Assembly: GCA_963798375.1 (NCBI GenBank)
Contig: CAWCTG010000032.1
Location: 72,232-136,231 of the forward strand
Direction: 5' to 3'
Length of the DNA: 64,000 bases
Origin: Candidatus Binataceae bacterium
Lineage (GTDB): Bacteria > Desulfobacterota > Binatia > Binatales > Binataceae
A program made the translations under genes and the position numbers. The notes under the pieces are model-generated. The model did no database searches, was not told the origin of the DNA, and saw nothing but the letters and a program-made list of their open reading frames with translations. Numbering within the stretch: position 1 is the stretch's first letter; each line of letters begins with the position of its first letter. This document shows, in pieces, positions 4,011 to 56,267 of the stretch.

Positions 4011-4140
4011 GCGGGCGCGATCAGGCGCGCTCGGTCATTGTGACATTCACGCCGGGCTCGGGATCGATCCGACCAGCCCGCACGCGGTGAGGCTGACGGG
4101 CGCCGGCAAGTAGCCGGCTTGTCTCATCCAGATCACGGAA

Positions 4141-37440: not shown

Positions 37441-39183
37441 ATGAAACTATCGCTCGCTTGTGGATGCTGCAGACCATCAACGTTCAAACGACACCGCGAA
37501 CCAACCGACGCGCCAATTCAGGCCACCCCCGAAGAACTACAGGCGATAAGGCTCCAGCTCGCTGAGATCGAGCAATCGCTCTCGCGCCTATGGGGTCCGA
37601 CAATTTGGAGCCGCACGCCCGAGTGCATCCAGGTTCGCGCCGAAGCCGCCGATCTGATCGACCGGCACTTCGACGGCATCGTCGAGCAGTGGGGAGAAGC
37701 GATAATCGCCCTCATCGACGGCCGCTCCGAACACGACCAGGAAGAGGGCAAAGCCAGTTTGGTCAACGCTCTCATCCGTCTCGTCGATCACCTGCGCGAT
37801 CCCGACGACATTTGCACGTACGTTTATCTGCGCCGGCATTGCCAGGAGGGGATGCTCGCGCGGGCCAAACCGTCGCAGTTCAACACCATCCACATCGCGC
37901 TCAAGCAAATAATTCTCAATCACGTAAAATCTTCAATGACCGGTCCCGCGATGGAACTGGTGCGCGACCTGGTGGTGGCGGCAATCGACGAGCGGCGCCT
38001 GATGGTCTCGCAGTTCTACATCGAATCGCGCGAACGGATGCTGCGCGAATCCGAAGAGAAGTACCGCAACACCATCGACCACGCGCCGGATCCAATGTAT
38101 GAGATCGAAGCGGATACCTGGGTCGTGACCGGGCTGAATGCGGCCGCCCTGCGACTCCATCGAACCGAGGTACCGCCAAAAGGTTGGTATGACCCCGGCC
38201 ATGAAAAGAAGCAGATTATTGGATTTCCGATCACAGATTTCGTACCGCCGGAGTTAAGGCCAAGAGTGATCGAGAGCCTGGAGACGGTTGTGCGCCAGGG
38301 ATCGGCGCAGGCCTCGGAATTTCCGATCGGGCCGCTCTTCTTCGACGTAAACTCCGCGCTCATCACCTACGGCAAGAAGCAATTCATCCAGATGATCCTG
38401 CGCGACGTAACGCAGCGGCGCGACATGCTCGACTCGCTGATCAAGGCCGAGCGATTGGCCGCGGCGGGCACCTTCGCGGCGGGCGTGGCGCATGAGGTGA
38501 ACAACCCGCTGGCGTCGATCTCATCGCTGGTTCAATCCATCCTGACCGGCGAGAACGACCCCCAGCGGCGCACCACCCTGCACACCATCCTGTCCCAGAT
38601 CACGCGCATCTCGAGCACGCTCAAGGACCTGGTGAATTTCGCGCGACCCACCACCGCGCAACGCAAACCGGTTGACGTCAACGGGCTGATCGCCGAGACG
38701 CTGCGGCTCATCACCTACAACAAACGCTTCAGCGGCATCCAGATCGAACCCATTCTTGCTCCCGATCTGCGCCGCGCGTTCGCCGACGACAACGAAATTC
38801 AGCAGGTGCTGCTCAATCTGCTCTTCAACGCCGCCGACGCCTCCCCCGCCGAGGGCGCCGTGATCAAAGTGATCACCGAGAACCAGCGCGCCGGACAGGG
38901 CGCGGACAAATCGGGCCGGGTGGTTATCAAGGTGGTTGACAACGGCATCGGAATCCCGCGCGAACATCTGGAACGCGTGTTCGATCCATTCTTTACCACC
39001 AAGCCCGCGGGCGCCGGGGTCGGACTGGGACTGTCGCTATGCCAGCGCATGATCCTGTCCAATCAGGGCACCATTCGCGTTGACAGCGAGGTCGGCCGCG
39101 GCACCTCCGTCACCGTCACGCTGGCGGCGGGCGCCCAGGATTCCGAACGCGCGGAACAGGCGGCGAGCATGGCCGCGTCTTGA
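37441..39183 (+). CDS. PAS-domain sensor histidine kinase
   Basis: H-box HEVNNPLASI; HATPase motifs DNGIGIP and GLGLSL. Confidence 0.8.
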   Translation: MKLSLACGCCRPSTFKRHREPTDAPIQATPEELQAIRLQLAEIEQSLSRLWGPTIWSRTPECIQVRAEAADLIDRHFDGIVEQWGEAIIALIDGRSEHDQEEGKASLVNALIRLVDHLRDPDDICTYVYLRRHCQEGMLARAKPSQFNTIHIALKQIILNHVKSSMTGPAMELVRDLVVAAIDERRLMVSQFYIESRERMLRESEEKYRNTIDHAPDPMYEIEADTWVVTGLNAAALRLHRTEVPPKGWYDPGHEKKQIIGFPITDFVPPELRPRVIESLETVVRQGSAQASEFPIGPLFFDVNSALITYGKKQFIQMILRDVTQRRDMLDSLIKAERLAAAGTFAAGVAHEVNNPLASISSLVQSILTGENDPQRRTTLHTILSQITRISSTLKDLVNFARPTTAQRKPVDVNGLIAETLRLITYNKRFSGIQIEPILAPDLRRAFADDNEIQQVLLNLLFNAADASPAEGAVIKVITENQRAGQGADKSGRVVIKVVDNGIGIPREHLERVFDPFFTTKPAGAGVGLGLSLCQRMILSNQGTIRVDSEVGRGTSVTVTLAAGAQDSERAEQAASMAAS

Positions 39184-39196
39184 GAATCGAAATGCG

Positions 39197-40621
39197 ATGA
39201 ACAACGACGCTTCATGGACCGCACAGGAACGCGGACCTTACCGGCTGCTGATCGTCGAAGACGAACCCTTGATGCGCTCGATCATCGTGCAGCTCGCGCG
39301 CAGCGAAGGCTACGAGGTAATGGAGGCGCCGGCCGCGGAGGTCGCGCTGCACATCTTCGAAAAAGAAAAAATCGATCTCGCGATTCTCGACCTTAACCTG
39401 ACCAGCGGCGGCAACGGACTCGATCTGCTCCGCAAAATGCGCGAACTCGACCCCGAGGTGATGGGAATAATCGTCACCGCCTACGCCAGCGTCGAGTCAG
39501 CCGTCGAGGCGCTGCACCAGGGCGCTTACGATTACATCACCAAGCCGTTTGCGAACGATCATCTGAAAAAGGTGATGCGCAACGCGCTCGAGGGCAAGGC
39601 GCTGTTCAGGGAAAACCGTTTTCTGCGCCAGGAACTGCGCGAGAAGTATCGCTTCGAGAGCATCATCGGCAAAAGCGACGCCATCGAAAGCGTGTTCCGC
39701 GTCATGGAAAAAGTCGCGCGCACCGACACCAGCGTGTTGATCACCGGCGACTCCGGCACCGGCAAGGAACTGGTGGCCCGCGCGATTCATTTCAGCTCCG
39801 AGCGCGCCAGCAACCGCTTCCTGCCGATCAATTGCGGCGCGCTGCCCGAGAACCTGCTCGAGAGCGAACTGTTCGGCTACAAACGCGGCGCATTCACCGG
39901 CGCCGGGCAGGACAAGGTCGGCCTGCTCAAGGCCGCCGACAAAGGCACCGTCCTGCTCGACGAGATTGGCGAGTTGCCGCTCGCGCTGCAGGTCAAACTG
40001 CTGCGCGCGCTTCAGGAGCGCGAGGTCTATCCGCTTGGCGCCAACGATCCGGTGGCGTTCGACGTGCGCGTGCTGTGCGCCACCAATCGCAACCTCGAAA
40101 GCGAAGTCAAGGCCGGCCGCTTCCGCGAGGAACTGCTCTACCGAATCAACGTCATCAACATCAATCTTCCCGGTTTGCGCGAGCGCCAGGACGATATTCC
40201 CCTGCTCGCCAACCATTTCCTGCGCAAGTACGAAAAGTCGATGTCGCGAACAGCGATGCGCTTTTCCAAAGGCGCGATGCGCCTGCTCATCAACTACGCC
40301 TGGCCGGGCAACGTCCGGGAGCTCGAAAACGCCGTCGAGCGCGCCGCCATTCTGGCCGAGACCGACGTCATCCACTCGCACGATTTGCCTGACAAGCTGC
40401 GCAGCACGTCGCCCGTGATGGCGAGTGTCGAGAACCCCGGCCTCACGCTCGAGGAGCTTGAGCGCGAGCATATCAAACTCGTGCTCGACAGAGTCGAAAA
40501 CGACAAGGTGAAGGCCGCGCAGGTGCTCGGGATTCACCTCTCGACGCTCTATCGCAAGGTCCAGCGTTACCACCTCGACGGCGACATCCCCGTGCATCAG
40601 GAGCCTGCGCGCTCGGCGTGA
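39197..40621 (+). CDS. Sigma-54-dependent response regulator (NtrC family: REC + AAA+ + HTH)
   Basis: [11 protein letters not shown]...; Walker [16 protein letters not shown]; GAFTGA motif ([15 protein letters not shown]); C-terminal HTH. Confidence 0.9.
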
Positions 40622-40709: not shown

Positions 40710-40925
40710 ATGGACCTGTTTGCGCCAACTCACCTGCTGATCATTTTGCTGATCATTTTGGTCATCTTCGGGCCTAGCAAGCTCGGCGATGTCGGCGGCG
40801 CGATGGGCAAAGCGATTCGCGATTTCAAGCGCGCGATGAACGAGCCCGACGACGCCGCCAAGACGGTCGCGAAGACCGACGACGCCAAGGCGGCCGAGGC
40901 CGTAAAACCCGACAAACTTTCCTGA
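40710..40925 (+). CDS. tatA: Twin-arginine translocase subunit TatA/E
   Basis: MDLFAPTHLLIILLIILVIFGPSKLGDVGGAMGKAIRDFK. Confidence 0.9.
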   Translation: MDLFAPTHLLIILLIILVIFGPSKLGDVGGAMGKAIRDFKRAMNEPDDAAKTVAKTDDAKAAEAVKPDKLS

Positions 40926-41029: not shown

Positions 41030-41836
41030 TCACATGTTCAGGCATGCTTCGGCGGCGAGCGCGAACAGCCGCTCGCGGATCTGATGACGGTTCCAGTTGC
41101 GATGATCCCATCGGGCGCTTAGATCGTCCCCGCCATAGAGAATCTGTCCGAACTGGACGCCGCGGAACTGCGCGACGGCGAAGAAGGCCGCCGCTTCCAT
41201 CTCGACCGTGAGGCATCCTTCGCGCCTGCGCGAGAGCATCCGGGCGCGCGTCTCGCGGAACAGCCCGTCGGTAGTCCAGGTCTTGGCGACGATATAGTCG
41301 AGGCCGTTTCGCCTCAGGGTCTTTTCGATCGCCGCCAGGGCGCGCGGATGCGGCGCGACTTCACGCGCGGGCGGCAGGTAATGGTACGAAGTGCCCTCGT
41401 CGCGAATCGCAGCGGTCGGCACCACGATATGGCCGACCGCAATCTTCGAGTCGAGCACGCCCGCGCCGCCGCATGCGATGAACTTGCGCACGCCGCGCGC
41501 GATGCATCGATCGAGCATCGCAGCGGCCATCGGAGCGCCTATGCGCGGGTGAGCCACCGCCAGCCGCTTGCCGCCGAACTCGAGCTCGTAAACGGGATGG
41601 CGCCCCACTTCGCTGATCGCGTGATCGATCTCGCGGGCGCCGCCATTGAGGATGAGGTCGTCGATCACGTCCTGGAAGAAGCAGAGCACGCAATGCTTTG
41701 GCACGTCGATCGGTTTGTACACGCGGCGCGGCTCGATGATCGCAGTCGGTGAGGGATCGTATTCGAGGATGGGGAACGGACACGCGGGCCGGCGCTTTGG
41801 GACGCGATGGGGTGATTTAGGGTGACGCGGCTTCAT
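41030..41836 (-). CDS. PNP/UDP-family nucleoside phosphorylase-like protein
   Basis: Phosphorylase fold signature FIACGGAGVLD...TVEMEAAAF; ~269 aa from MKPRHPK. Confidence 0.55.
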   Translation of the reverse strand: MKPRHPKSPHRVPKRRPACPFPILEYDPSPTAIIEPRRVYKPIDVPKHCVLCFFQDVIDDLILNGGAREIDHAISEVGRHPVYELEFGGKRLAVAHPRIGAPMAAAMLDRCIARGVRKFIACGGAGVLDSKIAVGHIVVPTAAIRDEGTSYHYLPPAREVAPHPRALAAIEKTLRRNGLDYIVAKTWTTDGLFRETRARMLSRRREGCLTVEMEAAAFFAVAQFRGVQFGQILYGGDDLSARWDHRNWNRHQIRERLFALAAEACLNM

Positions 41837-42259
41837 GACGCGATAGTAGCAGGGGCCGGCCCCTGCACCCGAGTCAGGACGAGAAGAAGAGAGGCGGCGG
41901 AGGTTATCCTGAGTGAAGTCGAAGGCGCCGTTAGAAGGGCGGGGGTAAGGTCGCGAGCGGCGAGAGACGCCTGCTGCATTCAGCTCGATTCTCGCGGCGG
42001 CACTGGAAAGGCTGTGCAACAAACCCGCCTGGAAATCTTGCACAGGGGGGCCGTTTGGACTACAAGACGGGCTGAAATCATAGAGTAAAATGCGATTGCG
42101 AGGATTGTGACGGTATAAAATTTGCTTACTTGGCAGACCGAGGTTTTTAGAAAGATTAATGAGAGGGCATTTTCTCCAAGGATCACAAGGCCGCCGCCGA
42201 AGGATCCCAAAACCATGATGATTCTTTTGGATAGGATCGCATCGCCTTTTGGATACAGT

Positions 42260-42277
42260 TGTCCCGTTTTTGGGACA
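42260..42277. promoter_or_regulatory. Perfect 6-6-6 palindrome TGTCCC-gttttt-GGGACA ~60 nt upstream of the cytochrome operon; candidate operator
   Basis: Seen directly, in a low-GC promoter region that also has two CTTTTGGATA direct repeats (42222-42231 and 42247-42256). Confidence 0.3.
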
Positions 42278-42337
42278 GCTCGTCGTTGTGAGGAGCATGT
42301 GTAACCGCCGGCGGTAAGCCGCTAGACGGGCGCGCCT

Positions 42338-43395
42338 TTGCCGACGGCGGGCGCCCGAAATGGAGACGGCAATATGGAGGGGGAACGCAGCTCGCGAAAG
42401 TTTTGGGCAGGTCTTTTGGTGGCGCTGGTCGCGTTTGGAATCGCCTCCCTGGTTTCATCGCCCCCCGCAATCGGCATGGAAGGCACCCTGCTTTCCCAAG
42501 CCACAGGATCGGGGACCCGGCTACCGCCGGGCTATGTCCATAATGACACCTGCACCAGTTGCCATGATGTATCGGTCAAGTCCTTCCGCAAGACAATGAT
42601 GGGCCATCTTATGATGGGCCAGCCGCGCGACGAGGAGGAAGGCCTCGCGTGCCAGGCCTGTCATGGTCCCGGCCGCGAGCATCTACGCCATCCGAGCAAG
42701 CCGTCGCCGGGATTTCTGAGTTTTCGCGAGACCACCTTCACCGACATCAAGATTGAGAACGACCGGTGCCTCGCATGCCATCAAAACGGCGAGCGCGGGT
42801 TCTGGCGAGCCAGCGCCCACGCCGAGCGCGGCATTCGATGCGTTGATTGCCACGCCGTGATGTGTCCGGTGACGGCGAGCGCGCTGCCGCAGGCGCAACT
42901 CAAGAAGTCACCGCTTGGCACTGAATTCATCAACCCGTTCGTCGTGACGCGGCCCGAAACGCAGGTCTGCCTGCGCTGCCATCTCGACAAAAAGATGGAA
43001 ATCAATTTGCCGTCGCACATGCCGCTGCGCGAGGGGTTGATGACGTGCACCGACTGCCACAACCCGCACGGCGGACCGTATCAGAAGCAATTGCGGGCGG
43101 CGATGGTCAATGAGGTCTGCTACCGCTGTCATGCCGAAAAGCGCGGGCCGTTCCTCTGGATGCACGCGCCGGTGGCGATGAACTGCCTCAATTGCCATAT
43201 CCCGCACGGCAGCGTCAACCAGCACATGCTGGTGATCAACATGCCGGTGCTCTGCCAGCGCTGCCACATCGGCACCCGTCATCCGAGTGAGCCACAGAGG
43301 GGGGGTCAATTTTCGTGATCAACCAGCAATGCGCCAATTGCCATTCGCAGATACACGGCTCGAGCTCGCCGGGCGGGAGATATTTCACGCGCTGA
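42338..43395 (+). CDS. Periplasmic decaheme c-type cytochrome, MtrA/MtoA/PioA family. The reading frame is broken at the G7 run 43299-43305, which places the tenth CXXCH (CANCHSQIHGS) in the +1 frame.
   Basis: Nine CXXCH motifs in ORF 42338-43318 (CTSCH, CQACH, CLACH, CVDCH, CLRCH, CTDCH, CYRCH, CLNCH, CQRCH). The next frame reads INQQCANCHSQIHGSSSPGGRYFTR*, a typical MtrA-family C-terminus. N-terminal signal/anchor present. Confidence 0.8.
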
Positions 43396-43466
43396 AGCGG
43401 GAGGCAGAGGAACGCACGGCATCGCTGGGCCGCACCGCGTCTTGCAGCCGGCCCGGGAGGAAAGTC

Positions 43467-45722
43467 ATGAACCTGAAGCGGTTGTTAGCCGGATGTGGAA
43501 CGATGGCGCTCGTGTTGTCGATGCTTTCGCCGGCGCTGGCACAGGTCGATTTCGCGCAATTCACAGCGCAGGGTTCGGTCGAGGCCGGCGCCATTCCCCA
43601 GCCTGTCCCTTATACCAATGTCGCGGAGTATCAGCAGTACCGCGATCTGGCGCAGCAGTTCATCGTTCCGCAACTGCAGTTGATCCTGGGCGACAAGGCG
43701 GAGAACTACTACGTCCAGTTCGACGCCATCAACGTCGCGCAAAAGAACCAGATGTATTCGCTGCGCTTCGGCGAGTACGGTCTGCTCGATGTTCAGGCAA
43801 AATTCTTCGAGATTCCACACAACTTCAGCAACGGCATCGCGAGCACGCCGTACAACCAGGAAGGCGGCAACTTCACTCTATCCTCGAAGCCCACTGGTAC
43901 CGGCCCCGCGCTCGATTCCTGGCTGACAGCGAACGCCAAAACGTTCGACATGAGCCTGCTCGAAGGTGTCGCGGACATCGACGTGCGCTATACGCCGACG
44001 CCGTCGCTGACCTTCAGTGCGAACATGGATTACCAGAACCCCACCGGCCAACAGCCATTCGGCGGCTCCTTTCTGTTTGGCACCAGCCCGGGTACTTACA
44101 AAGTGAACGAACTGTTCCTGCCAATCCAGTACTACACCTATAACTTCGGCACCGGCATCGAATACGCGAAAAACGGATGGATGGTGGGTTTCCAGTACCA
44201 GGGGTCCTTCTTCGTCGACGACTACAGCACCCTGACCTGGGACAACCCCCTCAATACCAGCGGAGTAGGCAGCAAATGCGTTGATTCCACCGTTTTCACT
44301 TCCACCTCGCTCACCGGCCCCTGCCAGGGACGGGCAGCCATGTACCCGAACAACCAGGCTCACAACTTCATCGTGAACGGAACGGGTCAGCTTCCATTCA
44401 ACACACACGTGATGGGGAGCCTCGAGTACGGATTCTGGCTCCAGAACGCTCCCTTCATCCCGCTTACGGCCAACAGCAAGTTGCAGCAGTCATTAAGTTC
44501 GGTAGGAGCGCCTAATAGCCTCGGCGGCGACGTGCAGCCTTTCTTTGCCAACTTCACGATCGATAGCAATCCAATCGAACCGCTGGATCTAAAGGCGACC
44601 TATTCCTATTTCGATTACGACAACCTGACGCCGGCGATCACCTTCACAGGTGTTAAGTCGCTGAATGACGTAGCGGACGCGCAGACGCCTTTCACCGCTT
44701 ATCCCTTTGCATTCTCGGAGCAGGACGTCAGCCTCGAGCCAACCTACCGCCTGACTGATACTCTCGCCACACACTTTATGTTCAAGTGGCAGACCAACCA
44801 CAACGGCGGGCTGGAGGTGCTACAGCAGGATCAAACCAGCTACGGACCCGCGCTCGATTGGAACCCATACCCGTGGCTGACTTTCCGGGCGGACTACCAG
44901 CACGCGCACCGCGACTCGCCGGGATACAACAACAACCGCGCCAGCCTGGTCCAGGTGCTTGGCGGGACCCCGGGAGAGATCGAGGAGCTTCAGAGCCTCT
45001 GGCGGTTCGACGAGGCCACGCTCGATGTGAACCAGACCTCGCTCTATGCCTCCGCGCAGCCGATCGAACAACTCACGCTGTTCGCCGCCTTCAATTACGA
45101 CGACTATAACTACCCCAACAGCGACTTCGGCCTGGAGCACACTTCGGACTATTCGCCGTCGGTGGGGGCCAGTTGGGAACCGATGCCAGGCATGCACCTT
45201 TTTAGCGACTACTCCTGGCAGGCGTACGATTGGAACCTATGGTCACAGGACGAGACTACTATTCCGGCGGCGAAGCCTCCGCCTGGAAAAACGAACGCTT
45301 GGGAGGCCAGGGGCCGCAACCAGGGCAACAATATCGATTTCGGCACGGACATCGCGATACCGCCGAATCGCATTCTGCCGCGGCCGTCGCACCTGAAACT
45401 CCAGTACACCTACACGGTTGGCAACAACAGCACCCACCAATCGGGGGCTACCTCGGCCGGGGCGTCAGGGGAGGCGATCGACTATCCCGATGTCGGCAGC
45501 CAGTTCCAAGAGTTGATAATTCAGTACCAGTACGATTTGCTTGACAACCTGGCTATCAACGTCGGCTACTACTTCACTCACTCCAACGAAAACAATTTCA
45601 TGGTGGACAACATGAGGAACTACATGCCGAATGCAAGCGCAAATTCGACATTTCTCGGCAACACCGACATAGCTCCTTACAACGTCAATGTCGCATTCAT
45701 AACCCTGAAGTACAAATTTTAG
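43467..45722 (+). CDS. Large outer-membrane beta-barrel protein (~752 aa), MtrB/MtoB/PioB-like porin partner of the decaheme cytochrome
   Basis: Signal peptide MNLKRLLAGCGTMALVLSMLSPALAQ. Y/N/G/S/T/Q-rich with alternating amphipathic strands. Ends in an aromatic C-terminus ...AFITLKYKF. Sits immediately downstream of the MtrA-like gene. The listed ORF start 43287 is an artefactual upstream extension. Confidence 0.7.
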   Translation: MNLKRLLAGCGTMALVLSMLSPALAQVDFAQFTAQGSVEAGAIPQPVPYTNVAEYQQYRDLAQQFIVPQLQLILGDKAENYYVQFDAINVAQKNQMYSLRFGEYGLLDVQAKFFEIPHNFSNGIASTPYNQEGGNFTLSSKPTGTGPALDSWLTANAKTFDMSLLEGVADIDVRYTPTPSLTFSANMDYQNPTGQQPFGGSFLFGTSPGTYKVNELFLPIQYYTYNFGTGIEYAKNGWMVGFQYQGSFFVDDYSTLTWDNPLNTSGVGSKCVDSTVFTSTSLTGPCQGRAAMYPNNQAHNFIVNGTGQLPFNTHVMGSLEYGFWLQNAPFIPLTANSKLQQSLSSVGAPNSLGGDVQPFFANFTIDSNPIEPLDLKATYSYFDYDNLTPAITFTGVKSLNDVADAQTPFTAYPFAFSEQDVSLEPTYRLTDTLATHFMFKWQTNHNGGLEVLQQDQTSYGPALDWNPYPWLTFRADYQHAHRDSPGYNNNRASLVQVLGGTPGEIEELQSLWRFDEATLDVNQTSLYASAQPIEQLTLFAAFNYDDYNYPNSDFGLEHTSDYSPSVGASWEPMPGMHLFSDYSWQAYDWNLWSQDETTIPAAKPPPGKTNAWEARGRNQGNNIDFGTDIAIPPNRILPRPSHLKLQYTYTVGNNSTHQSGATSAGASGEAIDYPDVGSQFQELIIQYQYDLLDNLAINVGYYFTHSNENNFMVDNMRNYMPNASANSTFLGNTDIAPYNVNVAFITLKYKF

Positions 45723-45845
45723 GCCAAGCCTATTAAGGTACTTGGAGCGAGAGGCCGGAACACAAACAACGAATGACCTATCGTCCGCGGCGGCCCGGCC
45801 CGCAAACCAATTGGCGGACAAGGATTGTAAGGAAGGAGAGAAGCT

Positions 45846-46259
45846 ATGTCGAAGAGTTTGAGAACGAAGATTCGATCGAGACTCTGGATTTGGACCGCGT
45901 CGGCCATACCAGCAGTTGCAGTGCTGGCGTTGATCTCAACCTGCGCCCGCGCAGCCGATCTCACGGCCGCGGCCGGCAGTTACTCGGATACCTGCGCTAA
46001 GTGTCACGGCCCGGCCGGCAAGGGCGATGGCCCCAAAGCGGCCGAACTGAAAGACAAGGACGGCAAGCCGGTCACCATCGGAGATTTATCCGATTGTGCC
46101 AAGATGAGCAAGATAACCGATGACGACATGTTCAAGGAGCTGAAAGAGGGCGGCGCGTCAGTAGGCAAGAGCAAGTTCATGACTCCCTATGGCGATGCGA
46201 TGGAGGACGACGAGATCAAAGGGCTGGTCGCTTATGTCAGAACCTTGTGCAAGAAGTAG
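45846..46259 (+). CDS. Monoheme class-I cytochrome c, secreted (MtoD/Cyc1-like candidate periplasmic shuttle), paralog 1
   Basis: Signal peptide; single CAKCH; conserved C-terminus LVAYVRTLCKK. Confidence 0.8.
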   Translation: MSKSLRTKIRSRLWIWTASAIPAVAVLALISTCARAADLTAAAGSYSDTCAKCHGPAGKGDGPKAAELKDKDGKPVTIGDLSDCAKMSKITDDDMFKELKEGGASVGKSKFMTPYGDAMEDDEIKGLVAYVRTLCKK

Positions 46260-46280
46260 CGGCGCGCGCCACATCGGCGA

Positions 46281-46406
46281 TCGACTGTATCAATACTGGC
46301 ACCCGGTTCCATGAGTTGATATTTCAGTGCGAGTACGATTTTGCGCGATAACATCGCGTCATCGCAGGCTACTACTCCAGCAATTGTGGCGAACATAATT
46401 TCATGG
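46281..46406 (+). repeat. Degraded duplicate of the porin-gene 3' region (cf. 45480-45603), footprint of a tandem segmental duplication that generated the second monoheme cytochrome gene
   Basis: ~75% identity by direct alignment. Both cytochrome genes end ...tgcaagaagtagcggcgcgcgcca. Both have an AAGGAAGGAGAG-type SD. Confidence 0.7.
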
Positions 46407-46423
46407 AGGGAAGGAGAGGAGCA

Positions 46424-46825
46424 ATGAGAACTAAGATTCGATCGATACTGTGGGTTTGGACCGTGTCGGCCATACCGGCGGTTGCAGCGCTGGCGTTGAT
46501 CTCAACCGGCGCCCGCGCAGCCGATCTCACGGCCGCGGCCAGCAGTTACTCGGATACGTGCGCTAAGTGTCACGGCCCGCTCGGCAAGGGCGACGGCCCC
46601 AAAGCTGCCGAACTGAAAGACAAGGACGGCAAGGTGGTCCCCAGCGGAGATTTGTCCGATTGCGCCAAGATGGCCAAGGTTACTGACGACGACATGTTCA
46701 AGGAGCTCAAGGAAGGCGGCCAGGCGGTCGGCAAGAGCAAGTTCATGACTCCCTATGGCGACGCGATGGAGGACGACGAGATCAAGGCGATGGTTGCGTA
46801 CGTCAGAACCTTGTGCAAGAAGTAG
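46424..46825 (+). CDS. Monoheme class-I cytochrome c, paralog 2 (tandem duplicate of 45846-46259)
   Basis: MRTKIRSILWVWTVSAIPAVAALALIS...CAKCHGP...MVAYVRTLCKK; ~85% aa identity to paralog 1. Confidence 0.8.
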   Translation: MRTKIRSILWVWTVSAIPAVAALALISTGARAADLTAAASSYSDTCAKCHGPLGKGDGPKAAELKDKDGKVVPSGDLSDCAKMAKVTDDDMFKELKEGGQAVGKSKFMTPYGDAMEDDEIKAMVAYVRTLCKK

Positions 46826-47113
46826 CGGCGCGCGCCAGGCTCCAGAATGAGCCTCGGCGCGCGGGGTTGAAAGCGAGCAGTCTCAGGCAGCGGCCGGCTT
46901 GTAGTTCGCCGGCGGTGTCGCGCAGCAGTTGTACTCGCGCTCGCCCTGACCACTCAAAGCTGGCAAGTGAAAGGCCTCGCACTGGTAACCGGCTGAACCT
47001 CACCAGAGAGCGACCCAGGACAAGCGGGTCCGATCCCAGGGATCGGACCGCTTGCCGCTCGGAAACCGGGCGTCGCTTCCCCAGATTTTCGAGAGAAGCT
47101 ACGCAGGTGGAAT

Positions 47114-48655
47114 ATGCAAACGAGCGGAGATGAGCCGGGCGCACCGGGATCGGAGCGCCCGGCACGGCAAAATGGCGCCGAGGCCGAACGCCAATTACCA
47201 AGCCTGGCTCGCAACCGGCTGAGCATCGCCGGCCTGATCATCGCCGTCATCGTCTTGGCGGACATGGTTTCCCTGGCTGGCATGACGCTGCTAGGGGTGC
47301 AGTTGAACCCCTACGTCGGCATTTTTGCCTACCTGATCGGTCCGGCCGTCATGATATTCGGCCTGTTGCTCATTCCGGCCGGGATGGCACTCGAACGGCG
47401 ACGGCGCCGGAAGTTTCTGCCGGGTGAGCTGCCGCCCTTTCCCAAGCTCGATCTCAACGAGCCTTCGGTTCGGCGCGGCTTTCTCGGCGCGGTAGGCTTT
47501 TCGATGTTTTTTGTGGTTCTGAGCCTGGCGGCAAGCTACCAAGGCTACCAGTTCACGGACTCGGTGATGTTCTGCGGCCAGACCTGTCACGTCCCGATGA
47601 AGCCGGAATTCGACGCCTACCAGGATTCGCCGCACGCGCGGGTCGCATGCGCGGACTGCCACGTAGGACCCGGCGCCACTTGGTTTGTTCGCTCCAAGCT
47701 GTCGGGCGCCTATCAGGTCTATGCGGTAATGTTCAACAAGTACCCCAGACCGATTGAAACCCCCATCAAGGATTTGCGCCCGGTTCAGGCAGCCTGCGAG
47801 CAATGCCATTGGCCGCAGAAGTTCTACGGCGCGCAACTCAAGGTCTTCGCGCATTATGCCTACGACGAGAAGAACACGCCCACGCGCATCCAGATGCTGA
47901 TCAAGACCGGAGGAGGAGCTGCCGAGTTCGGCCGCGCCACCGGAATCCACTGGCACATGAACATCGCCAACCAAGTATGGTTCGCGGCTACTGACACGCA
48001 GTCCCAGGTGATTCCATGGGTGAAGGTAAGGACCCCCGACGGAAGGACCACGGAATACACTGCCAAGGGCACTTCGCTGACCCCAAAGCAGATTGCGGCG
48101 ATTCCCATCCAGACGATGGACTGTGTGAGCTGCCATGCCCGCCCGTCCCATAAGTTTCTTCCGCCCGATCAGGCGGTCGATGCGTCGTTCGAGGCGGGCC
48201 AGCTCGACCCTACGCTTCCCTTCTTGAAGAGGCAGGCGGTCAAGGCTCTGCTCAAGCGCTATGACACGTCGGAACACGCGACCGAGGGAATCGCCACCGC
48301 CCTCGATACCTTTTACCAGGATCGCTATCCCCAGATTTATGCCGCCAAGGCGCAGCAAATCGGGGCCGCCATTGCCGCCGTGCAGCACATCTACACAACC
48401 AACATCTTTTCGTTTATGCGGGTTGATTGGCGCACGCATCCCGATAACATCGGCCACCTTTATTACGCGGGATGCTTCCGCTGTCACGACGGGCAGCACG
48501 TCAGCGCCGATGGCCGGGTGATACCCCAGCAATGCGAAACCTGTCACACGGTCCTTGCATCTCCCAACAGTGTCGCCGAGTTCAAGCATCCAGTTGATCT
48601 GAACGATGTAGGCGGCGCGACCTGCAGCACCTGTCATACCGGAGGCGTCCTGTAA
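47114..48655 (+). CDS. Membrane-anchored heptaheme c-type cytochrome, NapC/NirT-related (ImcH-like candidate quinol/quinone oxidoreductase)
   Basis: Two N-terminal TM helices; seven CXXCH (CGQTCH, CADCH, CEQCH, CVSCH, CFRCH, CETCH, CSTCH); 513 aa. Confidence 0.7.
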   Translation: MQTSGDEPGAPGSERPARQNGAEAERQLPSLARNRLSIAGLIIAVIVLADMVSLAGMTLLGVQLNPYVGIFAYLIGPAVMIFGLLLIPAGMALERRRRRKFLPGELPPFPKLDLNEPSVRRGFLGAVGFSMFFVVLSLAASYQGYQFTDSVMFCGQTCHVPMKPEFDAYQDSPHARVACADCHVGPGATWFVRSKLSGAYQVYAVMFNKYPRPIETPIKDLRPVQAACEQCHWPQKFYGAQLKVFAHYAYDEKNTPTRIQMLIKTGGGAAEFGRATGIHWHMNIANQVWFAATDTQSQVIPWVKVRTPDGRTTEYTAKGTSLTPKQIAAIPIQTMDCVSCHARPSHKFLPPDQAVDASFEAGQLDPTLPFLKRQAVKALLKRYDTSEHATEGIATALDTFYQDRYPQIYAAKAQQIGAAIAAVQHIYTTNIFSFMRVDWRTHPDNIGHLYYAGCFRCHDGQHVSADGRVIPQQCETCHTVLASPNSVAEFKHPVDLNDVGGATCSTCHTGGVL

Positions 48656-48679
48656 GCGAATCGGCGCGGCGCAGGCGGT

Positions 48680-50056
48680 GTGAGACAAATGACGCACGGA
48701 TCAGGGCGTATGGTTAGCTCAGGGCGGACGGTTAGCGGCCTCGGGCGCGCCGCGTGCGCTATTGCGGCAATGCTGCTGTACGCAGTTGCAACGGCGCAGG
48801 CCGCTCCGACCAAGGCCGCTCCGCCGAAGGCCGCTAAGACGACGAGAGCCGGTAAGACGACGAAAGCCGCTCCGGCGAAGCCGCTCACCGATAGCGATTG
48901 CCTGTCCTGTCATAATCTTAAGGCCAGCGCCAAGTTACAGGCGCGGCCGGTTAGCGTGTACGTCAATGCGGAGATATACCAGCCCTCGGTCCACGCGAAG
49001 CTGGGTTGTGTCTCCTGCCATTCTGACATCCATGCCTTTCCTCATCCCGATCCGGTCAAGCCGGTTTCCTGCGCCGGCTGCCACGCGAGTGAGACTTCGG
49101 CCTATGCGGGCAGCGTTCACGCTATCGCCGAGCGGGAGAAGAAGAGCCGCTTTCCGGCCTGTCTCAATTGTCACGGAAACCCCCACGGCCTCCGCGCCAA
49201 GACTGACCCGAAGTCGCGAGTTTACCCGCTCAACCTGCCGGGCACCTGCGGCACCTGCCACGGTAACCCCGAGCTTGCCAAGAAATATGGCTTGCCGGAC
49301 GTGTACCCGCTCTACATGGATTCGATTCACGGCTTCGCGCTGAGTGCCGACGGGCTCCTGGTGGCTGCCACCTGCAGCAAGTGCCATGGCGCGCACGATA
49401 TCCTCAGCCGAAAGGACCCGAAGAGCCGGATCTTCTATAAAAATGTGCCTGCCACCTGTGGCGCGTGCCATGCCGGCGTCGAAGTCGAGTACCTTGCCGG
49501 AGCGCACGGCGCGGCGATGATCGCCGGGCGCGCGAATGCTCCGGTATGCACGAATTGCCATACCTCGCATCAGATTACCCAGGTGGACGTCGCTAGCTGG
49601 CAAATCAAAACCGTCGCCACCTGCGGTAACTGTCACAAGACCAGGCTTAGGAGCTACGGCGATACTTTCCACGGCGAGGTGACCGAGCGCGGCTTCGTCT
49701 CCGCGGCGCAATGCTGGAGTTGCCATGGCGCTCACGAAGTTCTTAAGGCCTCCAATCCCAAGTCCAAGGTCGCGCCGGCCAACCTTCTCACCACCTGCGG
49801 CAAGTGCCACGTCGGCGCAACCGCTAGCTTTGTCAAGTACGATCCGCATCCCAATGCGCACGAGCGGCGGCGCAACCCGGCCCTGTATTACGCGGCTCTA
49901 TGCATGGGACTGCTGCGTTTGATTGACCCATTCGGACTGATGGCTGTTGGCGTGGTGCTCGCAATTACGCTCGCTCACGGAATCGGCCAGATCGTGCGGT
50001 ATAACACGGGGACGGACCACTCGGACTCTGACCGCCATTCGGGAGATGAAAAATGA
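48680..50056 (+). CDS. Undecaheme (11 x CXXCH) c-type cytochrome with Sec signal and C-terminal hydrophobic helix
   Basis: CLSCH, CVSCH, CAGCH, CLNCH, CGTCH, CSKCH, CGACH, CTNCH, CGNCH, CWSCH, CGKCH counted. Repeated ...DPKSR... spacing. C-terminal TM LYYAALCMGLLRLIDPFGLMAVGVVLAITLAH. Confidence 0.8.
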   Translation: MRQMTHGSGRMVSSGRTVSGLGRAACAIAAMLLYAVATAQAAPTKAAPPKAAKTTRAGKTTKAAPAKPLTDSDCLSCHNLKASAKLQARPVSVYVNAEIYQPSVHAKLGCVSCHSDIHAFPHPDPVKPVSCAGCHASETSAYAGSVHAIAEREKKSRFPACLNCHGNPHGLRAKTDPKSRVYPLNLPGTCGTCHGNPELAKKYGLPDVYPLYMDSIHGFALSADGLLVAATCSKCHGAHDILSRKDPKSRIFYKNVPATCGACHAGVEVEYLAGAHGAAMIAGRANAPVCTNCHTSHQITQVDVASWQIKTVATCGNCHKTRLRSYGDTFHGEVTERGFVSAAQCWSCHGAHEVLKASNPKSKVAPANLLTTCGKCHVGATASFVKYDPHPNAHERRRNPALYYAALCMGLLRLIDPFGLMAVGVVLAITLAHGIGQIVRYNTGTDHSDSDRHSGDEK

Positions 50057-50145
50057 CCTACGTCGTAGTTGATCCCGTAACGCGCATCGAGGGCCATCTA
50101 CGGATCGAAGCCGAGCTTGACGGCGGCAAGGTGAGGATTCTGTGA
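50053..50145 (+). pseudogene. 30-codon remnant of a [NiFe]-hydrogenase large subunit (N-terminal L1 motif fused to a short C-terminal tail), start/stop-coupled between the 11-heme cytochrome and cytochrome b
   Basis: MTYVVVDPVTRIEGHLRIEAELDGGKVRIL*. VVDPVTRIEGHLRIE matches the universally conserved N-terminus of NiFe hydrogenase large subunits (cf. E. coli HyaB LVVDPITRIEGHMRCEV). Its ATG overlaps the upstream TGA (ATGA) and its TGA overlaps the GTG of the cytochrome b gene. Confidence 0.65.
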
Positions 50146-50843
50146 GTGCGCCACCGCGGCTTGTGCCCGAGCCACCTGGCACTGGCCTTGTTTATGTCTG
50201 GCAACTGCCAGTGCGTTTGTCGCACTGGTTGATCGTCATATCGATAGCTGTGCTAGCGGTTACCGGCTACTTCATCGGCAATCCGTTAATAACAACCGGC
50301 GGACCTGCAAGGGATCGCATCGTCGCAGCCACCATGCGCAGCATCCATCTCTACGCCGCGTGGGTGTTTGGTGTGTCGGTGGTCGTGCGGGTTTACTGGA
50401 TGTTCGCCGGCAGTTACTACGCGCGTTGGGACCAGTTCATTCCGGTCTCGCGCGACCGGCTCAATAGCGTCTGGCAGGCGATGAGGTTTTATAGCTTCCA
50501 GCGCCGCGGCCCACAGCTTTATCCGGGTCATAGCGGCCTTGCCGCGCTGGCTTATACGGGCATCTTCATGATCTACTTTATGGAGATCGTCACCGGCCTG
50601 GCCCTGTACTTCATCTATGCTCCGGCGAATTCGGTCTTTCAGGGTTTTCGCTTTTTAGTCCCAATCTACTCTCGCTTTCTCCACCATATCGGGATGTGGA
50701 TCTTGTTGATGTTCGTGATTCAGCACGTGTACTCGACGATTCTTTTTTCGGTCGAGGAGCGCAGTGGAATCATCGACTCGATGTTCACAGGCTACAAGCG
50801 CATAAGCCCGGAAGCCGAGGAGGAGGCGCATCGCGATGCCTGA
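50142..50843 (+). CDS. Dihaem b-type cytochrome of the Ni/Fe-hydrogenase (HyaC/HydC/FdnI-like) family, membrane quinone-interacting subunit
   Basis: Four TM helices with conserved His (RLSHWLI..., IHLYAAW, HHIGMWILLMFVIQHVYS); family-typical R-x-x-H-W at TM1. Confidence 0.8.
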   Translation: MSAPPRLVPEPPGTGLVYVWQLPVRLSHWLIVISIAVLAVTGYFIGNPLITTGGPARDRIVAATMRSIHLYAAWVFGVSVVVRVYWMFAGSYYARWDQFIPVSRDRLNSVWQAMRFYSFQRRGPQLYPGHSGLAALAYTGIFMIYFMEIVTGLALYFIYAPANSVFQGFRFLVPIYSRFLHHIGMWILLMFVIQHVYSTILFSVEERSGIIDSMFTGYKRISPEAEEEAHRDA

Positions 50844-50891
50844 CGAGTTACTCGAACTCATGAACGCCGCTATCACACAAGGAGAATCGCA

Positions 50892-51656
50892 ATGATATTC
50901 GGTGTAGTCATCTTAATCGCCGCAATCTTCATTCTGAGCGGGGTCAAAGTCCTTAACGAATATCAGCGCGCCGTAGTCTTCCGCCTGGGGCGGCTCATGC
51001 GGTACCGCGGCCCCGGCATAATTTACGTGGTCCCCCTGGTGGAGCGGATGGTCCGGATCGATCTGCGTACCGTCGTGCTCGACATCCCGCCGCAGGACGT
51101 AATCACCAAGGACAACGTGACCGTCAAGGTGAGCGCGGTGCTCTACTTCCGGGTGATCGATCCGTCGCGCGCGGTCACCGAGGTGGCAAATTACCTGTTC
51201 GCCACCATGCAGCTCGCGCAGACCACCCTGCGCTCCGTTGGCGGACAGACCGAACTCGACGAACTTCTGAGCCAGCGCGACAAAGTCAACGCGCGCATCC
51301 AGGCGATCGTCGATGCCCAAACCGAGCCGTGGGGAATCAAGGTCATGCTCGTCGAGCTGAAGAACATTGATCTGCCGCAGGACATGCAGCGCGCGATCGC
51401 CGCCCAGGCCGAGGCCGAGCGCGAACGGCGCGCCAAGGTGATCGCGGCCGAGGGCGAATTTCAGGCGGCGCAGCGCCTGGCCGAGGCGGCGGAAATCATG
51501 GGCAAAAGCCCGATCACGCTCCAGCTTCGCTACCTGCAGACGCTTGCCGAGATCGCGACCGAGCATAATTCGACCACCGTGTTTCCCCTCCCGATCGATC
51601 TGCTCGAGCCCTTTCGCAAGCTGGCAGGCGGCGGCGACGCCGACAAGCCGAAGTAA
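50892..51656 (+). CDS. SPFH/band-7 (stomatin/prohibitin-like) membrane protein
   Basis: N-terminal TM; SPFH core [18 protein letters not shown]...; C-terminal coiled coil [22 protein letters not shown]. Confidence 0.85.
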
Positions 51657-51954
51657 GGGGAGGTCATCGCGGCGCCGTGGACAGATGGCGCCGGCAGTGG
51701 TCGGATCGCTGAGCTGATTTCGACGACGGCCCTGGGCACGCCTGATTGTGGTTGACAAAAGCTTGGAATAAATGTTGCTGATGCTTTAAAGTAAGCGGAT
51801 GAAGGGAGGCTAATGCGTTGGGAAAAACGGAACTGAGGATGCTATCGTCGCACGATGTTCCCAACCATTGTGTCTCAAACGAATACACCTGTGTAGCCTT
51901 TCGTCATGATGTTTGGTAGCGAAGCGAAACGCCTTAGACAAAAGAAGGAGCAGA

Positions 51955-52368
51955 ATGGTCATGTCAGAAAATTCACCGGCGAAGATTCGATCGAAGGGCT
52001 GGAGCTGGACGCCCTTGGCGGCGGGAGTAGCGATGATGCTGGCGCCGGCATTGATCCCAACCGTCGTACGTGCCGCCGAAGTCGATCTGAAGGCCGCGGC
52101 CAGTAATTATTCGGATTCGTGCGTGGACTGCCATGGTGAGTCGGGCAAAGGCGACGGTAAAAAGGCGGCCGACCTGAAGGTCAAGCCCGCCGACTATACC
52201 AATTGCGCAGAGATGACGAAGTTGAGCGACGATTATCTCTTCAACGTCATCAAAAACGGCGGCAAGTCGGTGCACAAGAGCGAGGCCATGGCCGACTTCG
52301 GCAAGGCCTACGACGACGACGAGATTCACGGGCTTGTCGCCTACGTCCGCACGTTCTGCAAAAAGTGA
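51955..52368 (+). CDS. Monoheme class-I cytochrome c, third and more divergent paralog
   Basis: Signal peptide; CVDCHGESGKGDG; C-terminus LVAYVRTFCKK. Confidence 0.75.
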   Translation: MVMSENSPAKIRSKGWSWTPLAAGVAMMLAPALIPTVVRAAEVDLKAAASNYSDSCVDCHGESGKGDGKKAADLKVKPADYTNCAEMTKLSDDYLFNVIKNGGKSVHKSEAMADFGKAYDDDEIHGLVAYVRTFCKK

Positions 52369-52917
52369 GTGCGGCTAGCCGTGCCCGACGGTAATCGCGC
52401 ACAATTTGCGGTCTCGGAAGCCGGCGAAGTTATCGAGAGCGAACCGCGGCGGAAGTTCCTGGCGCGTCTGTTCTGGGGCGCGATGGCCATTGTCAGCGCC
52501 GCCATCGCGGCGCCCGTCATTTCCTATCTGATTATCCCGCTGTTGCGGCCGGGTGAGTCCAACGATTGGGTAAAGATGGGAAACATCGCCGACCTTCCGC
52601 TCAACCTTCCCCAGCGGCTCGAGGTCGGCCGGCGCGTGGTCGAGGGATGGGAAACGGACGATTCGCAGGTGACGGCCTGGGTGGTGCGGATGCCGGACAA
52701 AATCTACGTTTTCGATCCGCATTGCACGCACTTGGGATGCGCCTACCGATGGGTCGAGCAGGAAAAGCAGTTCTTCTGCCCATGCCATGCCGGCGTATTC
52801 AGCCTAACCGGGCAGGTGGTCAGCGGCCCTCCCCCACGTCCGCTGGACGTTTACGCGCACGAGGTCCGCGAGGGCGCCCTTTATGTGGTCCCGACTCCAA
52901 CTAAGCAAGTGGTTTGA
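52369..52917 (+). CDS. Rieske [2Fe-2S] iron-sulfur protein with twin-arginine signal
   Basis: RRKFLARL Tat motif; Rieske boxes CTHLGC and CPCHAGVF; GTG start directly after the upstream stop. Confidence 0.85.
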   Translation: MRLAVPDGNRAQFAVSEAGEVIESEPRRKFLARLFWGAMAIVSAAIAAPVISYLIIPLLRPGESNDWVKMGNIADLPLNLPQRLEVGRRVVEGWETDDSQVTAWVVRMPDKIYVFDPHCTHLGCAYRWVEQEKQFFCPCHAGVFSLTGQVVSGPPPRPLDVYAHEVREGALYVVPTPTKQVV

Positions 52918-54619: not shown

Positions 54620-56267
54620 TCCGCGCGCCCCCCGCCGATCCCCTAAAAGCTGTTGAAATTGGAGTGGCGGTCATCCTCGCCCGATCGGAAGATCGGGTGG
54701 AGTTTAACGAGGAGGACGCCCTGAGGAAGGGTGCCAAGAGGTGAGGGAGTGGAAAGACAGCCGTTGGCGAAGGACAACTGTGGTTGCGATATGCGGGTTT
54801 GTACGCGAGGCGAAGTTCGGCCGATCGCTGGCAACGGAATCCGCGCCTGTCAGCAAATGTGGATAGCCGAATCTGCATTGCGTCAGCGCGAGAGGCGAAC
54901 CGTGAAGCGACAAGCGGAGGATGCCGCTAATGAGAATTCACGAGAACGAGAACCGGAATGTCCGAACTAAAGACAAATGGAAGAATGCAAGCAGGATTCA
55001 AGAACGCTCAACTTGAAGCAGACTGTCGAGAACGTCTTCGACAGAAGCTGACAGTTGCGTCAATGAGGCGGCATGCCTTCCTGGTAGTACGAACACCATA
55101 ATGATTCCCAGTTTCTCGAATTTGCCGAGGTTGGACAAACTCAGGGCACTTGCTATCGAACTTAATTCCGCACTGCTCGAAGAATTCGACTCTTACAATG
55201 ACGTTCCTCTAGACGAGCGGTCGCTTCTCAAAAGGGAAGGCTGAGAACTTAGCGCGATGGGATACGGGCCGATTTGGATCATACTGGGCGCGGGCGTCTG
55301 CCCGATCCGATGAAACATGTTCAAAGCGATAGCGAGCCTCGCTCGCGCTTGTGGGCCGTTTTCGTGGCTGGCACTCTTAAGAATTCTTTGGCATTTGGCG
55401 GCGGAAAGCCGATAGCAAGTAGTGGGTTCGAATTTTGTGACTAACCGGGGGACTGTTTATGTCGATTTTTCGGACCGCTCTCGGTATGCGCCACGGCTAT
55501 GGGATCAGGGAGTGGCGCAGCGCCTCCTTGAGCAGCCACCATGGAGCTCTTAGCGGAGAGTCCGACGCCCACGGGGATGCTGGCATGCGAGAATAATAAG
55601 AGTCACGCAATCAGTTTCACCATGTCGGAAAGTCGAAAAAAGTGCCAAACGATATCGCGCTCGATGGCCCAGGCCCGCAGGGCCCGCCGGGTCCAGCCTC
55701 GACAACTATCGTCCCAACCGCCTCGCAGGTCTGCGATTGCTATTGTACCGCACCCCCGTGCGATTACAATTCCCCGAACGCAGAAGTTGTTTCGCAATGC
55801 CCGGATGGTGAAGTCGTCGTCGGCGGCACCTACACCTTCGACTTTGACGAGTATTATAATAAAGCCTTTGATTTCTGGGCAGTTCGGCTTGCGGGCTTCC
55901 CGATCTCACGCGGTGACCGATGGGTTATGTCGGATAGCGCTTGAGGTCGATTCACCGTCCACTGAATCAACACGGCTATACCAACGGTTTTCCGAGCTGA
56001 TGCAGGGCAGCGCTACTGTATTGCCTACCGTCGAAGCCACCCCATCGGTGTCATACGACGGGGATTCGGCGTCGTCACCGAAGAAGAAGTAGCGACACGG
56101 AAAGGAGAGCCTGAGGGAAGAAAAGTCTTTTTGGCATACCGTCACGTCCGCCAGGTCGAACTGAGCCCGCAGCACTGCGACTTATCGTCATCGAGCGCGA
56201 GCGTACTCGCGGCCTTGAGATTTGCGACAGACGCGACGAATAGCGTCCGCTTCGATCACTCCGATGA

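Follow-up and report, generated by a model that had tools for sequence, protein, structure and literature searches.

A probable MtrAB/MtoAB/PioAB-family porin-cytochrome conduit encoded by an uncultured Candidatus Binataceae bacterium, with a frameshift in the cytochrome gene

Background

Porin-cytochrome electron conduits of the MtrAB/MtoAB/PioAB family, which pair a decahaem cytochrome with an outer-membrane barrel, have been described in Shewanella (MtrCAB; PDB 6R2Q), in Rhodopseudomonas palustris TIE-1 (PioABC), and as the MtoAB-type systems, with MtoD and MtoC/CymA, of Sideroxydans ES-1, Gallionella ES-2, the KS Gallionellaceae and Dechloromonas RCB. In MtrA the first haem is periplasmic and the tenth lies at the external face (PMC8415449). 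Clusters of the mtoABCD type are found in Gallionella ES-2 and Dechloromonas RCB, and that of the KS Gallionellaceae contains two small cytochromes c and a cytochrome b fused to a dihaem cytochrome c (PMC6295460, PMC5566968). A 2018 survey found no gene for the inner-membrane cytochrome ImcH adjoining mtrAB or mtoAB (PMC6295460). Here we describe a gene pair at 42374-45722 of a 64-kb stretch of DNA (henceforth the window, whose positions serve as coordinates throughout) from an uncultured Candidatus Binataceae bacterium of the class Binatia. We consider it probable that these are the cytochrome and barrel genes of a conduit of this family, a grading that applies jointly to the whole of the explanation developed below.

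In homology searches the closest proteins and loci come from metagenome-assembled genomes (MAGs) of Candidatus Binataceae or Candidatus Binatus of peat and soil origin. A phylum-level genomic study describes the phylum of the Binatia as aerobic methylotrophs and alkane degraders and leaves extracellular electron transfer unmentioned, and our literature search returned no paper tying Binatia or Binatota to Mto, Mtr or extracellular electron transfer. Binataceae homologues of the two proteins have nonetheless already been labelled DmsE-family cytochromes and MtrB/PioB barrels by the NCBI and Joint Genome Institute (JGI) pipelines. The pair is thus a further member of a well-known family, in a cluster of somewhat unusual composition.

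Results and discussion

The cytochrome and barrel genes

The cytochrome gene, as sequenced, is divided over two reading frames. Its 5' part (42374-43318, forward strand) encodes a signal peptide and nine CXXCH motifs before a premature TGA (43316-43318) cuts it short; its 3' part (43291-43395, forward strand, ...SIFVINQQCANCHSQIHGSSSPGGRYFTR) lies in the -1 frame and contributes haem motif 10 and the His of the HGS motif before a TGA at 43393-43395. The first open reading frame (ORF) has an alternative TTG start at 42338; the ATG at 42374 agrees with the start (ME..ER..) of full-length homologues. The export signal is an N-terminal hydrophobic segment spanning residues 10-28. The first-pass annotation of this DNA had described exactly ten CXXCH motifs in about 340 amino acids, with the family-typical C-terminus CxNCHSQIHGS. 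Ten motifs are indeed present in the DNA, within 42551-43344, but only nine share one frame. Beyond the stop codon, in the -1 frame, stands the tenth, CANCH (43330), with SQIHGSSSPGGRYFTR and the final TGA after it. The C-terminal sequence is likewise real, yet in the DNA as read it is cut off from the rest of the protein. A single-base insertion at a run of seven G gives a 340-residue product with all ten motifs in one polypeptide.

The family assignment holds for either form of the protein. Against TIGR03508, the NCBIfam model of the DmsE/MtrA decahaem family, the repaired protein scores 226.2 bits and the ORF as encoded 205.2, both above the curated cut-off of 192.2. The best match in a sequence search of the PDB is MtrA of the Shewanella baltica Mtr complex (6R2Q_A, E 2.8e-54), with residues 47-338 of the query aligned to 57-331 of the chain, so that all ten haem sites, including the one in the out-of-frame tail, are covered; identity to MtrA is about 40% over 260 aligned residues. 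Relatives of the cytochrome number more than 7,000 in homology searches, and the closest database protein, encoded in a Candidatus Binataceae MAG, has 340 residues and is named 'DmsE family decaheme c-type cytochrome' (90% identity over 100% of the length). Among the best 120 homologues, ten motifs are found in 111 and haem motif 10 in 118; the nine exceptions comprise seven that lack N-terminal motifs, P0024, which stops before haem 10, and P0007, which has CTNSH at that position.

The barrel gene (43467-45722, forward strand) starts with an ATG 71 nucleotides past the restored stop codon of the cytochrome gene and ends with a stop at 45720-45722. As had been noticed at the outset, it encodes a protein of about 750 residues (751) with an N-terminal signal-like hydrophobic segment and a terminal Phe (...AFITLKYKF), and it follows the cytochrome gene on the same strand after a gap of about 70-150 nucleotides, in the decahaem-then-porin order. 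The Pfam family PF11854 (MtrB_PioB) is matched with 253 bits (E 8.7e-75; gathering cut-off 23), residues 56-751 aligning to positions 10-635 of the 635-position model, and homologues with 80-84% identity are called members of the MtrB/PioB family by JGI and NCBI. The single sequence has no match among PDB sequences, and a profile of 50 family members matches MtrB (6R2Q_B) over nearly its whole length (E 1.6e-73). An AlphaFold model built from the alignment of these 50 members has a mean predicted local distance difference test score (pLDDT) of 82.4 and a predicted template modelling score (pTM) of 0.74, and contains 26 long strands. Its first match in a Foldseek search of the PDB is MtrB, 6R2Q_B (E 9.5e-35; template modelling (TM) score 0.77/0.89; root-mean-square deviation 3.7 Å); the next-best matches, TonB-dependent receptors, reach TM scores of only about 0.36. 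The fold thus bears out the earlier call of an outer-membrane barrel rather than some other fold, and the membership of both proteins in the MtrAB/MtoAB family is upheld. Chance resemblance can be excluded, since all CXXCH-bearing open frames of the window fall in 42.3-54.6 kb, with no c-type haem motif elsewhere in it, and the hidden Markov model and PDB searches give E-values from 1e-54 to 1e-75.

Within the family, the pair departs from Shewanella MtrAB in several features. Of the ten positions that hold the distal His ligands in MtrA, eight retain His in the window cytochrome. The distal His of the CHQVH motif of MtrA is replaced by Met163 (CHAVM, 42860-42862), with Met in 119 of the 122 aligned sequences, and that of SSHPL by Met216 (SHMPL, 43019-43021), with Met in 120 of 122 and a His (His215) adjacent. 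On the basis of the alignment, these residues suggest His/Met-ligated haems of higher potential, like those of PioA, whose higher-potential haems have reportedly been ascribed to His/Met ligation. Measured potential windows extend from -400 to -100 mV in MtrA and reach up to +100 mV in MtoA and up to +250 mV in PioA. The barrel has no N-terminal CXXC, its only cysteines being at residues 10, 271 and 286; in S. oneidensis MtrB this motif is C42/C45, according to PMC12175506, citing Wee et al. 2014. Given the two Met residues, the missing CXXC and the lack of an MtrC-type partner in the window, the original designation 'MtrA-like' is too loose. The argument that the protein is not Pio-like stands, as the first CXXCH is at residue 60 of the 340-residue repaired cytochrome and there is no long N-terminal extension.

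The frameshift in the cytochrome gene

The break falls at 43291-43315 (forward strand), the sole stretch in which the 0 and -1 frames are both open, which includes the run of seven G (43299-43305) and the sequence CAATTTT. We compared about 20 relatives at this site, ranging from 76% amino-acid to 98% nucleotide identity, and relative to the comparable ones the window is one base short within the interval. The frame is kept in eleven loci of species-representative genomes and one MAG contig, and also in nine further contigs, five of which have 97.5-98% nucleotide identity to the window. Relatives carry four or five G at the site, and neither the shift nor a long G run is seen in any of them. 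The gene varies most in the 15 nucleotides upstream of TCAATTTTC, which read ...GGGGA-TCA-ATT (Ser-Ile) in some relatives and ...GGA-CAA-ATT (Gln-Ile) in others, so that the missing base can be placed only to 43291-43315, though judging by the sequence it most probably belongs to the G7 run. In P0024, a database homologue of 318 residues, the sequence stops short of haem motif 10 with ...CQRCHIGTFHPSTPQKP, where the window ORF stops too; its gene may be incomplete, or this variable spot may have been broken independently.

The out-of-frame tail agrees with the family consensus in 27 of its 28 residues and is near-identical to the C-termini of 12 homologues, from which it follows that the event is either very recent or unreal. 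We lean slightly towards the view that the missing base is a homopolymer sequencing error. Homopolymer runs are the classic place for errors in long-read consensus sequences, and the break coincides with one of just seven homopolymers of at least 7 bases in the 64-kb window. That the window proteins are indexed on a contig of 0.2-1 Mb suggests a long-read assembly, and long-read-style assemblies of the same cluster carry frameshifts of their own in mtoA-, mtoB- or ImcH-like genes (locus L030, 7663-8686; L004, 10927-13349; L005, 14555-16157). Compared with the window, L030 also has single-base indels at many scattered places, which is evidence of frequent long-read assembly noise in data of this kind.

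There is, however, a considerable chance, if somewhat short of an even one, that the frameshift is genuine and represents a very recent pseudogene or an 'off' state, in which case a functional conduit would not be made in this strain. Although the tail shows no decay, the surrounding sequence appears to be of good quality: in 44543-54619 the window differs from an independent, 99.9%-identical contig (L027) by 10 substitutions and no indels; no further coding indel is present in 34.7-46.9 kb relative to the 97.5-98% identical relatives L028, L033 and L036; no second split gene was found among the scanned window ORFs by tblastn or Pfam; and three other homopolymers of at least 7 bases inside ORFs remain in frame. 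If the deletion is real, the product would lack haem 10, which occupies the external face in MtrA, as well as the His of the HGS motif. The gene as sequenced therefore falls short of ten haem sites, with nine, and reaches ten only if the missing base is a sequencing error.

Exact-product look-ups with the barrel (751 residues) and the shortened cytochrome (314 residues) gave no match. Near-identical contigs (L023-L027, 99-99.9%) were found via neighbouring proteins, but all of them start inside the barrel gene and so leave the frameshift site uncovered. Likewise, neither the frameshift site nor the strain-specific GAGCTCG variant was matched when JGI metagenome contigs were scanned for the exact patterns.

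The shift might alternatively be bypassed or exploited, either by programmed -1 frameshifting on G_GGG_GGT or by poly-G phase variation that toggles the outward-facing haem. In the 0 frame, G GGG GGT is formally a heptamer of the X XXY YYZ type, a -1 slip on it would yield the full-length protein, and poly-G tracts are recognised slippage sites. We nevertheless regard this as very unlikely, given that no relative has the shift or a long G run in place of its four or five G, that no stable RNA structure lies downstream (z = +1.06), and that, to our knowledge, G-rich heptamers are not established as slippery sites in bacteria. Programmed frameshifting in particular was judged unlikely because the shift is unconserved and the downstream structure is absent. 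A broader version, in which reversible poly-G slippage would switch the conduit on and off via the tenth haem, within an undescribed hybrid pathway of Mto-type, ImcH-like, split CbcL-like and Rieske-cytochrome b components under sigma-54 control, is also decidedly unlikely; if true, it would set such a switch in a phylum described so far only as aerobic methylotrophs and alkane degraders.

A conserved gene cluster around the pair

The cytochrome-barrel pair opens a conserved, co-directional 12-kb cluster, in which the subsequent genes (all on the forward strand) encode mostly further cytochromes. Immediately downstream of the barrel is a periplasmic monohaem class-I cytochrome c (45846-46259; PF00034, PF13442), which has one CXXCH and a signal peptide and is MtoD-like by position. 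It is followed by a tandem paralogue, a second monohaem cytochrome c (46403-46825; PF00034), and the two genes share 89.8% nucleotide identity over 413 nucleotides. Relatives have one or two copies of the small cytochrome c, with one in L006.

The next gene (47114-48655) encodes a 513-residue inner-membrane cytochrome with three N-terminal transmembrane helices (residues 41-59, 74-92 and 122-140), a CX3CH motif (CGQTCH at residue 154) and six CXXCH motifs. A NapC/NirT region extends overall over residues 126-241, as detected by PF03264 and by similarity to NrfH (2J7A_C, residues 134-241). The described architecture of ImcH consists of about 495-519 residues with three N-terminal transmembrane helices, a CX3CH followed by six CX2CH motifs, and a NapC/NirT-like segment at the third helix (PMC6295460). 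By its match to this architecture the product is ImcH-like; among homologues with a name, those nearest to it are called 'NapC/NirT family cytochrome c' and come from Binataceae, Acidobacteriota and NC10.

Two further genes appear to encode the halves of a split CbcL/MtoC/MtrH-like unit. The first (48680-50056) specifies an 11-haem cytochrome c with a signal peptide and a C-terminal hydrophobic segment, and the second (50142-50843) a HydC/FdnI-type dihaem cytochrome b (TIGR02125, 138 bits; PF01292, E 5.5e-26). Many homologues of the 11-haem protein are about 650-730 residues long and align to it over their own first ~400 residues, and five of the six tested homologues of this size have a C-terminal PF01292 match, two of these matches being below the Pfam cut-off. 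As these homologues fuse the multihaem part with a PF01292 cytochrome b, the pair of genes at 48680-50843 looks like a split version of the same unit.

Beyond a gene for an SPFH protein (50892-51656; NCBIfam) are those for a third monohaem cytochrome c (51946-52368), a Rieske protein (52369-52917) and a cytochrome b fused to a C-terminal dihaem cytochrome c (52883-54619); by their predicted products, the genes at 51946-54619 code for a bc-type complex. Directly after the cytochrome b gene is a low-GC (~55-58%) stretch (54700-57363) without convincing ORFs. Here the window has about 2.5 kb against about 1.25 kb, with a gene for a 313-residue acetyltransferase, in L027, which is otherwise 99.7-99.9% identical, so this appears to be a strain-variable island.

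Upstream of the pair are genes for a sensor histidine kinase, the probable regulator of the cluster (37441-39183, forward strand; AtoS/ZraS-type NCBIfam matches), and for a sigma-54-dependent response regulator of the NtrC/AtoC enhancer-binding type (39197-40621, forward; NCBIfam AtoC, 450 bits, E 7e-135). The histidine kinase is kept directly upstream of the mtoA-like gene in L004, L005, L013 and L028-L036, and proteins with Sigma54_activat and HTH_8 domains occupy the position of the response regulator in relatives. A TatA/E-family gene (40710-40925, forward; PF02416, E 7e-17), whose position is also kept in relatives, is separated from the cytochrome gene by a phosphorylase-family (PNP_UDP_1) gene on the reverse strand (41030-41850). 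In L031, L034, L035 and L037 the phosphorylase gene is swapped for a small opposite-strand gene for an XRE-type helix-turn-helix protein (at about 6443-6790), and a 15-nucleotide TTTCAC-repeat indel is present at window position 41020.

About 247-250 nucleotides upstream of the cytochrome start is a sigma-54-type promoter-like element with the GG-N10-GC pattern, GGTATAAAATTTGC (42112-42127, forward strand). It is unique in the window and is kept with few substitutions in 11 of the 13 aligned upstream regions. As a gene for a sigma-54 activator adjoins, it is a candidate sigma-54 promoter, and the cluster is probably driven from it under the adjacent two-component system. The candidate was taken from the alignment of upstream regions; a scan of the sigma-54 consensus that allowed mismatches gave counts at chance level. 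The leader that follows (42128-42373) is strongly conserved across relatives, most of all in its last ~110 nucleotides, and can form GC-rich hairpins. In the consensus fold of this leader the hairpins show no covariation and no Rfam family is matched; in the window as a whole Rfam yields one tRNA and nothing else.

The entire arrangement is found again in Binataceae MAGs of palsa, SPRUCE peat and Danish soil origin. Reduced versions also exist: in L007 (10001-16072) the cytochrome c, Rieske and cytochrome b genes come directly after the mtoAB-like pair with no ImcH-like or CbcL-like genes between, and in L014 (126-~2900) the Rieske and cytochrome b genes come directly after the mtoA-like gene, no barrel gene being detected between them. 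ImcH-like ORFs (38-49% identity) are found at most 10 kb from an MtrA-like decahaem gene in L018 from Bryobacterales (~14.0 kb) and in the Omnitrophota loci L019 (~12.9-17.3 kb) and L020 (~8.8 kb), with Rieske and cytochrome b genes also part of the cluster in L019.

Away from the cytochrome cluster and unrelated to it, the region 569-8471 encodes three consecutive large NHL-repeat proteins (301, 531 and 1263 residues) with immunoglobulin-like domains of the ASH/Cep192 type.

Comparison with described systems

In described gene order, rather than by comparison with the MtoA sequence, the cluster is most reminiscent of the MtoAB-type systems. Common to both are a decahaem gene, a barrel gene, one or more small monohaem cytochromes c and a multihaem or b-type quinone-linked unit, along with the absence of MtrC/OmcA and a short cytochrome without the Pio-type extension. 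The resemblance to the KS Gallionellaceae extends to the two small cytochromes c and, downstream, the cytochrome b fused to a dihaem cytochrome c. On the other hand, those systems belong to Betaproteobacteria and the present one to Binatia, in a different phylum. The small cytochromes of the window are not detectably MtoD homologues, and the MtoC/CbcL-like unit is in two genes. The window cluster also contains an inserted ImcH-like gene, has a full Rieske/cytochrome b complex and a sigma-54 two-component system linked to it, and carries a frameshift in its cytochrome gene.

With Shewanella MtrCAB the locus shares the cytochrome at the identity given above, with its ten aligned haem motifs, and the 26-strand barrel fold. 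It differs in that the barrel is just 18% identical to MtrB in the structural alignment and has no N-terminal CXXC, Met is found at two distal-ligand positions, CymA is missing and the inner-membrane partners are others. Nor is there an MtrC/OmcA-type surface cytochrome in the window, where no ORF with haem motifs reaches TIGR03507, has a lipobox or attains the MtrC size of 600-plus residues. PioABC has the two protein families in common with this locus, and possibly His/Met haems, a feature that PioA is said to show. In contrast to PioABC, the cytochrome here has no long N-terminal extension and the gene pair has no phototroph context, and the family of the high-potential iron-sulfur protein PioC was not found among the window ORFs scanned.

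The product of 47114-48655 shares with Geobacter sulfurreducens ImcH the described architecture, but its gene lies within an mtoAB-like cluster, unlike the situation reported in the 2018 survey. The genes at 48680-50843 jointly give the domain content of Geobacter CbcL and of MtoC, i.e. a multihaem cytochrome c and a HydC-like cytochrome b, but as a split unit and with 11 haem motifs rather than 9.

A possible alternative to a mineral-directed conduit is one of the DmsEF type, feeding a dedicated extracellular terminal reductase. Though the best NCBIfam model bears the DmsE name, TIGR03508 takes in MtrA, MtoA and PioA alike, and neither the cluster nor the scanned ORFs of the window include a gene for a molybdoenzyme or any other terminal reductase, so we consider a DmsEF-type role extremely unlikely.

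Predicted pathway and direction of electron flow

By analogy with the solved Shewanella Mtr complex, the 26-strand barrel would sit in the outer membrane and would sheathe and insulate the cytochrome, whose chain of ten c-type haems would conduct electrons between haem 1 on the periplasmic side and haem 10 on the outside of the cell. Judging from the families of the proteins and the linkage of their genes, the small monohaem cytochromes c might ferry electrons through the periplasm, and links to the quinone pool might be provided by the ImcH-like protein, the two-gene CbcL-like unit and the Rieske/cytochrome b complex. We infer that the cluster, together with the adjacent Rieske/cytochrome b complex, would form a complete pathway linking the cell exterior to the quinone pool.

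As to the direction of flow, the comparative evidence tilts our judgement modestly towards electron uptake, that is, an Mto-like oxidation of Fe(II), reduced humics or minerals. Two features of the conduit itself favour it, namely the barrel without the N-terminal CXXC of Shewanella MtrB, a motif that MtrB proteins of metal-reducing Gammaproteobacteria reportedly carry, and the Met at two MtrA distal-His positions (in ~120 of 122 relatives), with the parallel that PioA is said to offer. The gene order mirrors that of mtoABCD and of the culture-KS cluster, the periplasmic carriers are class-I monohaem cytochromes with a bc-type complex linked, and Rieske/cytochrome b genes adjoin mtoA(B) in L007 and L014 and are in the same cluster in L019. 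Uptake is also favoured by the lack of an MtrC/OmcA-type cytochrome in the window, as in Fe(II) oxidisers, whose genomes are without MtrC and OmcA (PMC5566968).

Several observations weigh against the interpretation as a functional conduit for electron uptake. As sequenced, the cytochrome gene is unable to make a decahaem protein, and a real deletion would probably leave the conduit of this strain dead or switched off. A single-chain AlphaFold prediction of the repaired cytochrome from a 13-sequence alignment gave an unusable model (pLDDT 33, pTM 0.19). The barrel scores 202.2 bits against the NCBIfam model TIGR03509, under the curated cut-off of 240.05, and is hence a divergent member. The small cytochrome matches MtoD (4XXL_A) weakly, with an E-value of 0.072 and over residues 23-71 only. 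Our literature search gave no physiological, expression or biochemical data on any member of the Binataceae. Lastly, the ImcH family has so far been tied only to Fe(III)-reducing bacteria, in which its members are known only as quinol oxidases (PMC6295460), and it therefore points to outward electron flow.

The conduit could accordingly be pictured as exporting respiratory electrons to Fe(III), Mn(IV) or humics in the manner of Mtr, with the ImcH- and CbcL-like proteins acting as quinol oxidases as in Geobacter; Mtr-type conduits are, moreover, reversible in principle (PMC6295460). The presence of the ImcH-like architecture with a CbcL-like unit adjacent to it is in line with this picture, as is the origin of the relatives in peat and soil, habitats in which electron acceptors commonly include Fe(III) and humics. 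It is harder to reconcile with the missing surface cytochrome, the missing CXXC and the Met at two MtrA distal-His positions, or with the monohaem class-I periplasmic carriers and the linked Rieske/cytochrome b complex, both of which are typical of oxidising pathways. We therefore hold export to be the less probable direction, though still a plausible one, and retain electron uptake as the preferred one.

Implications

The description of this cytochrome as decahaem rests on reading across the frameshift, and this copy of the gene is unfit as a reference sequence until the reads have been checked. The physical linkage of an ImcH-like gene to an MtrAB/MtoAB-type conduit raises the question of whether ImcH-type proteins might also serve electron uptake. 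If the cluster is functional, the Binataceae would gain a direct electrical link to extracellular iron, manganese or humic substances, and, as they are abundant in peat and soil, such a cluster would bear on the iron and carbon cycling of peatlands.

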